From NCBI RefSeq assembly GCF_902652985.1, contig NC_047029.1, forward strand, positions 18,724,001 to 18,788,000: DNA of 64,000 nt, given 5' to 3'. Of this stretch, positions 45,701 through 51,700 are shown in pieces; the first letter of the stretch is position 1, and the number at the start of each line of letters is the position of its first letter. Source of the stretch: Pecten maximus (Eukaryota). The translations under genes and the position numbers were made by a program. The notes under the pieces were generated by a model that saw only the letters and a program-made list of their open reading frames with translations, was not told the DNA's origin and made no database searches.

Positions 45701-48700
45701 AGAGTTCAACAGTTTTAACACTGGTCAGAAGTTAAGAAAATATCCTAATCAGAGCTTTTCTTGGTGAAATATATATATCCAGTAGAAGGTTTTGTGAAAT
45801 AAGAAATTTTATGTGTGGGGTGGTCACAAAAGAAACTACAGATTGCTATGATACTGTTTTAATTAGATCACTTCTAATGGTGGTTTCTGCTTGTCAAACC
45901 TTGAATCCTCCCATCGGGAAATTATTTTACTGGAATAGCCGTCAGTAATAAACTACTCTCTGGTATGTATAGTGATGGTACTTAGTGTACTGTAAAGTAC
46001 TTAGAGAGATAAAGAGAAACATTTGGACACAAAAGAATTTTCAAGAATCTGAATCTGGGTTCTATTTTGCTGTTTCTGGTTAGTATCAATAGAAAAAATA
46101 GTAGCCCCTAATCCTGCTATGTCAACAAGGTCTTACACTCGAAAAGTTGGAAGTGGGTGGTGAATTTAAGTTCAATCTTACTAAAATATCAAAATGCACA
46201 CAAATTTCAGTAACACACCTTGGTTTAGAATCCTTAAATATCAATCCATTTTATTTTTTGTCCTGTGACAATGATTTAAAGATGAGAAAATGGATCAAAA
46301 GTGATTGTGATAGCCAGAAGCTAGAAGGAGCAATCTGATTGGTCGACAGCTCTGTAAACAATACTAACTATAATTGTTGACCAATCAATAGCCTACTTCC
46401 ATCCCACAGTTGATGCATCATCTGATCTTCGAGTGTTACACCTTGTTGTTGTAGTAGGAGCTAATATTTTTTCTATAAGTAGTAACCAAAAGCAGATTAA
46501 ATGTGCATGGTGAAAAAAGTTTCATTTTACAAATTGATCAGGAGCAGAACTAGAATAGTCCAGATTGGAATGTTTCCTGTCATCTGTCCATCACGGTGAA
46601 GCTATTGTGATAGGATGCATAAACAAATTTTGGGAGAAACCTTTTATGCCGTGCCCTCAAATGGAAAAATCAGTTTTCTATTCTTTGAATTTCGACATGT
46701 TTCACTTTAGACGTTTGTTTACTTTAATGTGAAAGAAGGTGCATACATTTTTTATAAAATGACTTTTGTTGGTAATTATCACCTGACATGGACGTTCTGT
46801 TTGTTCCAGGTATGTGGAAGCCCTAAAAGACAGAGTCACCGTGATATTTAGTACAATCTTTAAAGATGATAGTGATATTATTATAGGAAAAGTATTTATG
46901 CAAGTAAGTATACAATGCCACTCATACTTGCCATTGACTAAACAACATTTTCTGTGTAGATCAAGAATGTTATTGTTAAAACCTATAGCATCTACAACAT
47001 TCCCTCACAGAACATTGTCTTAATTTATATCACTTTATAATGTGTAATGAAAAATGCCCACTGAACCTTCCTTTTACCTTGGATATGTATGCAAAAAAGG
47101 GTGTTTTATACATACATCAGCTTTGATGAAAGTATTATGGTATGGCATTGTCCGTATGTCTCTCCGACGTAAACTTTAGTTTGTCTGGAGATCGCCGACA
47201 TTTTTTGACCGATGTCATTGAAACTTGGTATACTTTATGATCAAGATATGAAGTTGTGTTTTCACAAAAAGAGACTTTTTGCAAAAAGTTATCAATCTTT
47301 GTTCATTTCAGTATTTCTTATTTTGTTCTATGCTCTATATGGCTAGAATGTGTTCCAAGTTTGAAAGAAATCAGTCAAAAAATGAAGTCATTTTTCAACT
47401 GATTTCTTTCAAACTTGGAATGCATTCTAGGCATGATATAAATATAAAATGTATAAAGTTAATTTTATGTTAACCTTGATTTAAAGTTATTGCCCTTTGT
47501 TTATACGTAACACTTTAAATTTTATCACGAGTTCTCCTACTGTTATCAAACAATTTCTTAGAAACATGGCTCACATATCAAGTTGTGTTTAATGATCTGG
47601 ACACTTTGGATGACTTGTTTTCCTCAAACTGTTAGAAAATTAAACAGTGACCCTGTGATGAAAGACAAGATTTATATCATGCCAGCCAGACACCCTTAAG
47701 GTGATTCAAATCTTATTTTCATGCAAGATAATATACAACACTATAAGACATTTGATGGGTGTATATAGTCCGCCCAGCTGTAACCTTATTGTATGTTGAA
47801 AATTGTAAAATAATTTTCAGTTGGTAGAAAATAATCTGATTAATGAAACAACAATGTAGATTAAAAAAAAATTCACCTTGTATGTCGTTTCCCTGAAACC
47901 TTGACATATATTTTTCAATGTGAACATGGTAGATCCCTTGACTTTAACCAGTTTTATGTCCATGTATATTTTGCCTTTACTTTTTCTTTGTTCATATTTT
48001 TCCTGTTTTGACTCGCCTTTCCTGTAACCAACTGTAACCAGATGTATATAATTATTAATATGTTTTTACTTGATGTTGCAAAAAACATGAATTCACAAGA
48101 ATCTCGCATATATATGCAGATCAAATTGTTTGTATTAAAAAGAAAATAAGAATTAAAACTGTATACTGCCTAATATTGTATGACTGTCATACTGTATAAG
48201 TATTTGTGTAGGTAGGATTTTAGACATAGTTCAATATTGACAGTGAAAACTTTATATTGAAATAAAGCATCATACTTTTTCAAACAATTGTAAAGTGAAT
48301 TTTAAAATGGATTTTTATGATTATGTGTATCATTGATACGAAATGATCGATGTTTTGTTTTGGATATTTTTATTAGGAATTCAAAGAGGTACGGAGGAAG
48401 CATCAACAGGCGCCCCAAGTGTTATTTACACACCGAGAACCTCCAGCGGAACTCCAAGGCACACAGGCTCGCACCGGAGACAACATCGGCTACATCACAT
48501 TTGGTTAGTAAAGTTGTGCTGAATTTGAAGTAAATAACTTTTAAAGAATTTGTATCTAAATCAGGTGTCTCCTTGATTGGTATTCCTTCACTAGGTCTAG
48601 ATATTTTATCTGGACTTGTTTCTGTTTGATTCCTTCACTAGGTCTAGATATTTTATCTTGACTTGTTTCTGTTACAGTTCTGTTTCCTTCACTAGGTCTA

Positions 48701-51700
48701 GATATTTTATCTTGATTTGTTTCTGTTTGATTCCTTCACTAGGTCTAGATATTTATCTTGATTTGTTTCTGTTACAGTACTGTTTCCTTCACTAGGTCTA
48801 GATATTTATCTTGATTTGTTTCTGTTACAGTACTGTTTCCTTCACTAGGTCTAGATATTTTATCTTGACTTGTTTCTGTTTGATTCCTTCACTAGGTCTA
48901 GATATTTTATCTTGACTTGTTTCTGTTACTGTACTTATTCCTTCACTAGGTCTAGATTTTTTATCTTGACTTGTTTCTGTTACAGTTCTGTTTCCTTCAC
49001 TAGGTCTAGATATTTATCTTGATTTGTTTCTGTTACAGTTCTGTTTCCTTCACTAGGTCTAGATATTTTATCTTGATTTGTTTCTGTTTGATTCCTTCAC
49101 TAGGTCTAGATATTTATCTTGATTTGTTTCTGTTAGAGAACTGTTTCCTTCACTAGGTCTAGATATTTTATCTTGACTTGTTTCTGTTTGATTCCTTCAC
49201 TAGGTCTAGATATTTTATCTTGACTTGTTTCTGTTTGATTCCTTCACTAGGTCTAGATATTTTATCTTGACTTGTTTCTGTTAGAGAACTGTTTCCTTCA
49301 CTAGGTCTAGATATTTATCTTGATTTGTTTCTGTTAGAGAACTGTTTCCTTCACTAGGTCTAGATATTTTATCTTGACTTGTTTCTGTTTGATTCCTTCA
49401 CTAGGTCTAGATATTTATCTTGACTTGTTTCTGTTACAGTACTGTTTCCTTCACTAGGTCTAGATATTTTATCTTGACTTGTTTCTGTTACAGTACTGTT
49501 TCCTCGTCATACGAAGCGTGATAGTCGAGACAATACAATCAACCTCATTCACACCCTGAGGGATTACCTTCACTACCACATAAAGTGCTCCAAGGTAAGG
49601 GAAACAACTCACTTCAGTTACAGACTACATCAACATTTCATTTTATATGCCAAACATCAAACCTTTGTTATGGTGACAGTAAGAGTATGGTTAGTAAGTC
49701 TAGCTTAATGAATGACTAAAATCTTGTTATCTGTGATAAATTTGTTTAACTTTTCAATAAACATTTATTCAGAGATTAATTTTTAAGGGATAACACATGT
49801 TTTGTAGTAATGCAGAAAAAAATATTGGCTGAATTTTCATCAGAAATCTTCAGGCATTAATTAACGAGAAACTGTAGGCTCTAGTTTTTGCAGTCCTTGC
49901 CATCCACATATAGATTACCACAAACTCATGTTGTCCTGTTTAGATTACCACAAACTCGTGTTGTCCTGTTTAGATTACCAAAAACTCGTGTTGTCTTGTT
50001 TAGATTACCACAAACTCATGTTGTCCTGTTTAGATTACCACAAACTCATGTTGTCCTGTTTAGATTACCAAAACCAAAAACTCGTGTTGTCTTGTTTAGA
50101 TTACCACAAACTCATGTTGTCCTGTTTAGATTACCACAAACTCATGTTGTCCTGTTTAGATTACCACAAACTCATGTTGTCCTGTTTAGATTACCACAAA
50201 CTCATGTTGTCCTGTTTAGATTACCACAAACTTGTGTTGTCCTGTTTAGATTACCACAAACTCATGTTTTCCTGTTTAGATTACCACAAACTCGTGTTGT
50301 CCTGTTTAGATTACCACAAACTCGAGTTGTCCTGTTTAGATTACCACAAACTCATGTTGTCCTGTTTAGATTACCAGAAACTCATGTTTTCCTGTTTAGA
50401 TTACCACAAACTCGTGTTGTCCTGTTTAGATTACCACAAACTCGAGTTGTCCTGTTTAGATTACCACAAACTCATGTTGTCCTGTTTAGATTACCACAAA
50501 CTCATGTTGTCCTGTTTAGATTACCACAAACTTGTGTTGTCCTGTTTAGATTACCACAAACTCGAGTTGTCCTGTTTAGATTACCACAAACTCATGTTGT
50601 CCTGTTTAGATTACCACAAACTCATGTTGTCCTGTTTAGATTACCACAAACTTGTGTTGTCCTGTTTAGATAACCACAAACTCGTGTTGTCCTGTTTAGA
50701 TAACCACAAACTCGTGTTGTCCTGTACAGATTACCACAAACTTGTGTTGTCCTGTTTAGATTACCACAAACTCATGTTGTCCTGTTTAGATTACCACAAA
50801 CTTGTGTTGTCCTGTTTAGATTACCACAAACTCATGTTGTCCTGTTTAGATTACCAGAAACTCATGTTGTCCTGTTTAGATTACCACAAACTTGTGTTGT
50901 CCTGTTTAGATTACCACAAACTCATGTTGTCCTGTTTGGATTACCACAAACTCGTGTTGTCCTGTTTAGATTACCACAAACTCGTGTTGTCCTGTTTAGA
51001 TTACCACAAACTCAGGTTGTCCTGTTTAGATTACCACAAACTCATGTTGTCCTGTTTAGATTACCAGAAACTCATGTTGTCCTGTTTAGATTACCAGAAA
51101 CTCATGTTGTCCTGTTTAGATTACCAGAAACTCATGTTGTCCTGTTTAGATTACCAGAAACTCATGTTGTCCTGTTTAGATTACCAGAAACTCATGTTGT
51201 CCTGTTTAGATTACCAGAAACTTGTGTTGTCCTGTTTAGATTACCATAAACTCGTGTTGTCCTGTTTAGATTACCACAAACTCGTGTTGTCCTGTTTAGA
51301 TTACCAGAAACTCATGTTTTCCTGTTTAGATTACCACAAACTCATGTTTTCCTGTTTAGATTACCAGAAACTTGTGTTGACTTGTTTAGATTACCAGAAA
51401 CTCATGTTTTCCTGTTTAGATTACCAGAAACTCATGTTGTCCTGTTTAGATTACCACAAACTCGTGTTGTCCTGTTTAGATTACCAGAAACTCATGTTTT
51501 CCTGTTTAGATTACCACAAACTCATGTTGTCCTGTTTAGATTACCACAAACTCGTGTTGTCCTGTTTAGATTACCACAAACTTGTGTTGTCTTGTTTAGA
51601 CAACCACAAACTCATGTTGTCCTGTTTAGACTACCACAAACTCATGTTGTCCTGTTTTCAGGCTTACATTCACTCTCGCATGAGGGCAAAGACATCAGAC

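Follow-up and report, generated by a model that had tools for sequence, protein, structure and literature searches.

Mirage minisatellites are tandem repeats whose unit spans an exon-intron boundary. They are known from amphioxus, where the available sections of two reports place them in BflGb6, BflGb9, Adh3, troponin C and PGBD5 (PMC3087553, PMC3902484), with units of 10 to 160 bp (PMC3087553); somatic instability has been reported for the Adh3 mirage. The array described here lies in intron 8 of ARPC2 in Pecten maximus, within a window of 64,000 nucleotides (the whole stretch analyzed; assembly GCF_902652985.1, contig NC_047029.1, positions 18,724,001 to 18,788,000 of the forward strand), and belongs to this named, published class. 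Its unit of 47 to 54 bp lies across the boundary at the acceptor ending at 49493, the splice dinucleotide survives in many units and is lost from others (AG retained in 9 of the 17 upstream units), and the main mRNA is joined at the authentic site in four of four transcript assemblies, at contig level. It differs from the amphioxus mirages, as far as these are described in the sections available, in occurring in another animal group, in having 18 units against 3 to 6 in BflGb6, in its palindromic junction and in showing no sign of intron gain. Overall, the ARPC2 array is probably a tolerated mirage minisatellite that was born through microhomology and in which the last acceptor is chosen across the exon; this member of the known class is likely harmless.

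Related arrangements have been described in humans, again going by the available sections of the reports. In CBS 844ins68 an acceptor junction is likewise duplicated, the distal copy is used and CBS mRNA is normal (PMC2630376, PMC1802585); unlike ARPC2, it has only two copies, and distal choice is reportedly tied to G runs between the sites. The 37-bp variable number tandem repeat (VNTR) in intron 7 of F7 is polymorphic and holds the real junction in its terminal unit; its identical pseudo-sites are silent and the exon-proximal site wins, as at ARPC2 (PMC1557585). In contrast to ARPC2, which is known from sequence data alone, the F7 VNTR lies on the donor side and was tested with 50 constructs. 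Tandem duplications mediated by microhomology (the Haber-Louis model) are reported as mostly neutral, arms of 4 to 25 bp having been considered (PMC13167724, sections available). The ARPC2 array has a direct repeat of matching size (5 bp) at its two ends, TTCCT at 48583-48587 and 49500-49504, although one arm lies inside a coding exon and no single-copy allele was seen, since none of the contigs listed for three DNA samples (X1, X2 and X5) runs from the start of the intron directly into exon 9.

Structure of the array in ARPC2 intron 8

The gene in the window is ARPC2, on the + strand and single copy. The exon at 48377-48503 matches residues 184-225 of PDB 1k8k_D (E value, 1.7e-13), and a profile search of the genome with PF04045 matched five exons, all at the ARPC2 locus. 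Eleven coding exons with GT-AG borders were identified, and the joined reading frame has no stop; exons are numbered as coding exons from the ATG exon onward. An AG lies 2 bases ahead of the ATG, which points to an upstream untranslated exon. A second ARPC2 copy without the array was rejected, none being found among the seven candidates scored (7/7). Intron 8 (48504-49493) measures 990 nt, made up of 79 unique bases and the 18-unit array, and would measure 127 nt if the array were collapsed to one unit. The features of this region are as follows.

48377..48503, + strand: ARPC2 coding exon 8, 127 nt, followed by donor GTTAGT (PDB match, X7 contig)
48504..48582, + strand: unique 5′ part of intron 8, 79 nt
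48583..48587, + strand: left microhomology arm TTCCT
48583..49445, + strand: 17 upstream repeat units, the decoy copies (Tandem Repeats Finder [TRF], unit alignment)
49393..49445, + strand: unit 17, the nearest exact decoy, with its AG ending at 49439
49446..49499, + strand: unit 18, the real 3′ end of intron 8 plus the first 6 exon bases
49490..49499, no strand: perfect palindrome of 10 bp, ACAGTACTGT, spanning the real junction (sequence, folding)
49494..49594, + strand: ARPC2 coding exon 9, 101 nt, followed by donor GTAAGG (transcript contigs, PF04045)
49500..49504, + strand: right microhomology arm TTCCT, inside exon 9

TRF reported 48583-49504 with a period of 54, 18.1 copies, 87% matches and a score of 1263, far beyond chance. 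Alignment resolved 18 head-to-tail units (48583-49499), of which five are 54 bp (units 2, 7, 8, 14 and 18), six are 53 bp (units 4, 5, 9, 11, 15 and 17) and seven are 47 bp (units 1, 3, 6, 10, 12, 13 and 16). The unit covers −48 to +6 of the 49493 acceptor, or to +11 with the TTCCT arm included. An earlier reading made from the sequence only had taken the array for TTCCT-bounded copies of the exon 9 acceptor, as the unit alignment bears out; the 54 bp given there as the unit stands as the repeat period and is the length of only 5 of the 18 units. In unit 18, TCTTGAC and a pyrimidine tract ahead of the AG at 49493 may serve as branch site and tract.

Exact copies of the junction (TTACAG/TACTGT) were found in three upstream units, with AG ending at 48777, 48830 and 49439, where the sequence-only reading had placed them. 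Its near-copies also exist (TTACAG/TTCTGT, hereafter CAG/TT), although two had been placed one base short; the AGs of these three units end at 48677, 48985 and 49038. Three further units (11, 14 and 15) carry the variant TTAGAG/AACTGT (TAGAG/AA), and in unit 7 the AG is destroyed. The acceptor is missing from all seven 47-bp units, in which TGA replaces the junction decamer. Sites described earlier as deleted or altered are thus indeed altered or absent, with deletion only one of several possible origins of the 47-bp unit. The junction TTGATTCC of this unit (region, 48563-48629) is compatible with the loss of 11 bp between CTGTT repeats together with an insertion of 4 bp; alternatively, a second duplication could have begun in the left flank (CCTTGATTGGTATTCC). 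Unit 1 carries no acceptor, also in the DNA of X1 and X2. It is a guess that this acceptor-free unit first lengthened the intron, an idea that found no general support in the sample of 298 introns described below.

A genome search with two units, which omits very common words and scores the best candidates only, listed 10 matches, all 10 inside the ARPC2 array; a dispersed or transposon-borne unit was therefore rejected.

In all three DNA samples, contigs cross unit-unit junctions, at up to 4 to 14 times flank depth. This evidence comprises 27 of 52 pieces listed, with depth given over flank and compared with word counts in the reference. Array words had depths of 4.2, 4.6, 11.0 and 5.9 in X1, which may be the source of the reference assembly (reference, 4.0, 4.0, 8.3 and 5.4), 1.2 and 1.5 in X2 (reference, 4.0 and 5.7; single-copy control, 1.0), and 13.4 and 14.1 in X5 (reference, 5.4 and 8.0). 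Among these values, those for words across the 47-bp junction are 1.2 to 1.5 in X2 (reference, 4.0 to 5.7), and 5.9 in X1 and 13.4 in X5 (reference, 5.4). One X1 piece had a depth of 7.0 where 1.5 to 2.0 was expected from the reference. The length and composition of the array thus probably vary between animals, the depth ratios being an indirect measure: the differing letter is unprinted for some pieces, and the flank contig may represent one haplotype, which would halve the X5 values. No long read or contig examined spans the whole array, so that copy number and unit order are those of the reference assembly, and a repeat expanded or collapsed during assembly could be envisaged on that ground. 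Such an artifact is extremely unlikely given the unit-junction contigs in all three samples, the fit of X1 to the reference multiplicities (4.2/4.0, 4.6/4.0 and 5.9/5.4), the presence of a TAGAG/AA unit in X6 and the recurrence of at least seven distinct unit variants. Since its words are present in the DNA of three samples, the array itself is no assembly artifact.

Splice site use and the predicted fate of decoy products

Splicing was assessed on assembled contigs, not raw reads, from 7 of 24 sequencing runs. In four of four transcript assemblies, from four studies, exon 8 is joined to 49494, at the acceptor of the last copy (X6, X7, X8 and X14; depths of 160, 292, 226 and 33, respectively). 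The run type of these four was guessed or unknown, and the contigs themselves are spliced. Each spans 49493-49595, flanked on the left by the end of exon 8 and on the right by exon 10 (region examined, 49393-49905). Viewed from exon 8, the X7 contig over 48377-48503 has this join too, its loose ends carrying letters of exons 7 and 9. A join to a decoy would start at 49440 and carry an identical loose end; none was seen across 49393-49905 in any of the four assemblies. The spliceosome therefore bypasses identical upstream acceptors, one of two outcomes that had been foreseen from the sequence. Contigs lose rare variants, and the main RNA form alone is shown. Two minor findings concern coverage: X6 holds an 84-nt piece of the array (depth, 2.7) with the TAGAG/AA variant and no exon end, and X7 does not cover the unique part of intron 8, to which no weight was given as evidence. 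An unspliced X7 contig from intron 7 into exon 8 (48150-48406; depth, 13.8 against 292 spliced) could be pre-mRNA or DNA.

Between the pyrimidine tract and +11, the three exact decoys are identical to the real site; at +12 the real site has C and any decoy T. The information that decides between them must therefore lie further downstream, in the body of exon 9 and its donor at 49595; the exon body has 45% GC and 47% purines, and the unit 33% of each. In human exons with flanking introns longer than 250 nt, the closest sites across the exon are preferred (PMC9225289, sections available), and such an exon-centric proximity rule picks the last copy. At ARPC2 the exon 9 donor probably pairs, across the exon, with whichever acceptor is closest, and the array is likely tolerated for this reason. 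Its birth would have been a duplication between the two TTCCT microhomologies, as the arms and the available part of PMC13167724 suggest, followed by growth through slippage or unequal exchange, to which the recurring unit types point. Silencing by G runs, as in CBS, was rejected, no GGG being present in the array.

Rare use of a decoy would have a predictable outcome. Each of the 14 decoy AGs translated leads to a stop 117 nt or more ahead of the next junction. The unit 17 decoy (49439) would add 54 in-frame nt and place a TGA 117 nt from that junction, in agreement with the translation given earlier. Under the rule of 50 to 55 nt, which derives from mammals, decoy products are likely targets of nonsense-mediated decay (NMD). 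Stop-containing RNA from occasional decoy use would probably be cleared in this way and amount to noise, not regulation.

The sequence-only reading had proposed instead a regulatory splice-site VNTR, in which more decoys lead to more NMD and array length tunes the level of ARPC2. The stops behind all 14 decoy AGs would fit, as would the depth ratios, which suggest length differences between animals, and human tandem repeats whose length is associated with splicing or expression (spl-TRs) exist (PMC10078293, sections available). However, the decoy join is absent from all four assemblies, and acceptors show no enrichment of arrays (see below). In addition, an exon of normal size (155 nt) would result from the nearest decoy alone; under exon definition the farther copies should therefore add little. 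Published mirages and the F7 and CBS repeats are free of aberrant mRNA in the available sections of the reports (PMC3087553, PMC3902484 and PMC2630376 among them). Tuning of expression by the array is thus unsupported, and the regulatory VNTR very unlikely.

Junction-spanning arrays in a sample of introns

The sequence-only reading had asked whether repeats lie at junctions more often than expected. Kinase and Ras exons were located in the genome and 160 stretches of 10 kb were examined (L041-L120 and L180-L259). Introns were called by joining neighboring profile matches at GT/AG pairs, using splice weights set by hand after the general animal consensus; 142 of 188, 104 of 141 and 52 of 66 such pairs of matches were kept, giving 298 introns from 136 loci. 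For the null, every array was collapsed to one unit, which was then placed uniformly within its intron. The sample is limited to two gene families and introns below ∼9 kb, introns of one gene are not independent, and the null is simple.

The 298 introns hold 178 arrays, 11 spanning the acceptor and 23 the donor, with 11.6 expected for each; a junction-spanning array is present in 32 introns. At acceptors no enrichment was found in this sample, with 2 against 4.1 expected in set 1, 9 against 7.5 in set 2 and 11 against 11.6 pooled (P for at least the observed number, 0.62); the refuting check named with the sequence-only reading thus went against it in this sample. Acceptor-spanning arrays occur in 11 of the 298 introns (95% interval, 1.9 to 6.5%); 6 of the 11 have at least four copies and one has 33.6. 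Short introns hold three against 3.0 expected and show no avoidance, and a tendency of acceptor arrays to shun their own donor within the range of intron definition was rejected (2/11 against 9/23; P = 0.27). At ARPC2, a 54-bp unit placed at random in the collapsed intron of 127 nt would span the acceptor with a probability of ∼0.28.

Donor-spanning arrays were in excess in set 1 (12 against 4.1 expected; P = 0.0004). The replication, stated beforehand, gave 11 against 7.5 (P = 0.12), or 9 against 4.9 under a strict filter (P = 0.053), and the donor-to-acceptor ratio moved from 12:2 (P = 0.013) to 11:9 (P = 0.82). Replication of the donor excess and of the donor-over-acceptor asymmetry is not clear; the pooled excess (23 against 11.6; P = 0.0009) includes the discovery set.

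Of 34 spanning arrays, 21 were long enough for a test of decoy intactness and 4 of those failed to align. In the 17 others, the decoy AG or GT is intact in 246 of 250 units, a count biased toward intactness because the walk along the array halts where units align badly and because overshoot at the edges reduces the mean used for comparison. Decoys are thus generally not purged, and general purging of decoy dinucleotides was set aside. Other acceptor mirages in kinase genes include (gene-strand coordinates) L200 (+) 61-1871, with a 30-bp unit, 33.6 copies and 30 exact decoys, L217 (−) 5011-5575, L216 (+) 7476-8522, L075 (+) 5161-5962 and L041 (+) 1500-4907. Large junction arrays were also seen in the introns L104 (−) 5084-8895, with 55 exact decoy donors, and L254 (+) 2046-4138, with 31. 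In L229 (+) 3368-7267, a 123-bp array enters the exon by 2 nt and holds 76 copies of the last 8 to 10 bases of the acceptor.

Several observations weigh against a tolerated array with a last acceptor chosen across the exon. The proximity rule was established in humans and, by the available part of the same source (PMC9225289), an intron of 127 to 181 nt should favor the upstream copy at the time of the first duplication; in unit 2 the CAG is still intact, at a distance of 174 nt from the donor. The distal choice in CBS needs G runs (PMC1802585, sections available), and the ARPC2 array is without GGG. Low-level decoy use could have gone unseen, as rare or NMD-cleared forms would escape the contigs. 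The pooled donor excess implies that array placement is not fully random. Finally, AG is kept in 9 of the 17 upstream units here against 246 of 250 elsewhere, and the junction decamer, 10 of the 54 bases, holds a disproportionate share of the changes between units (4 of 8 events, P = 0.04; 7 of 11 substitutions, P = 0.001; both post hoc), which could mean selection.

As a single locus the ARPC2 array is of little weight, being one of probably thousands of acceptor-spanning arrays in the genome. It could serve as a natural experiment on the ranking of identical 3′ splice sites, with decoys that match the real site to +11. The sample gives a first null-tested mirage frequency for this genome; a literature search, which covered few subscription papers, found no earlier such count and no palindromic mirage. 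Gene prediction and primer design can also be led astray by junction-spanning arrays.

The junction palindrome and neighboring arrays

Because the decamer ACAGTACTGT is palindromic, base pairing between its copies and the real site is predicted. Masking of this kind would have exact copies pair with the real acceptor or with each other, hiding decoys (adjacent units 4 and 5 would mask each other) and also the real site, and selection would favor broken decamers. Consistent with this, the decamer is altered or missing in 14 of the 17 upstream units, and all four altered classes change it. In the predicted fold of lowest energy, unit 17 is paired to the real site (z, −3.1; 0 of 200 shuffles). 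The predicted unpaired probability of that site, 0.18 as a single copy and 0.15 with the unit 17 decamer shuffled, falls to 0.027 (window, 120), and predicted duplexes with it weaken from −14.4 kcal/mol for exact units to −9.7 for CAG/TT and −6.1 for TAGAG/AA. However, all the folding is predicted, and the effect is gone under a span limit of 40 nt (0.54). The value of 0.027 is within the range of the 298 ordinary acceptors (quartiles, 0.020 to 0.130), and a tandem copy of any palindrome outdoes shuffles by construction. The palindrome itself is a coincidence of ∼2% at acceptors and was noticed post hoc. CTGTT direct repeats flank the decamer, 11 bases apart, and a mutation hot spot would explain the clustering equally well; unit 17, potentially the best mask of the real site, is exact. 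Masking with selection for broken decamers is accordingly unlikely, and functional masking of the real acceptor would be quite unlikely. It is similarly improbable, on these predicted structures, that each exact copy acts as decoy and antisense mask at once, with number and position setting the speed or cleanness of exon 9 splicing and the palindrome selectively broken in the 14 copies by four routes. A tolerated mirage remains the preferred reading, to which the palindrome adds a testable RNA helix at the junction. As a hallmark of mirages the palindrome was rejected, being found at 1 of 11 acceptors with arrays and 5 of 287 without; no donor had one (0/23 with arrays and 0/275 without).

A further array was identified in intron 9.

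49911..51657, + strand: 30-bp array of 58 copies in intron 9 (TRF)

This array stops 4 nt short of the exon 10 acceptor and leaves the junction uncrossed. It repeats the pyrimidine tract, with 45 of the 55 units counted ending TCCTGTTTAG/A and the real site reading TCCTGTTTTCAG/G. Five more large minisatellites lie in the 64 kb (4-2770, 9753-10400, 37666-39302, 44519-45135 and 61646-63995), and of these the one within intron 5 of ARPC2 is 393 and 300 nt away from the junctions of that intron. In X2 one contig departs from the reference at 48303 and continues with 132 different letters, which marks a structural allele of intron 7. For intron 10, two donors are possible at 51760-51766 (GTCTCG after 51760 and GTATGT after 51765), and there are tandem acceptors at 52166-52168.

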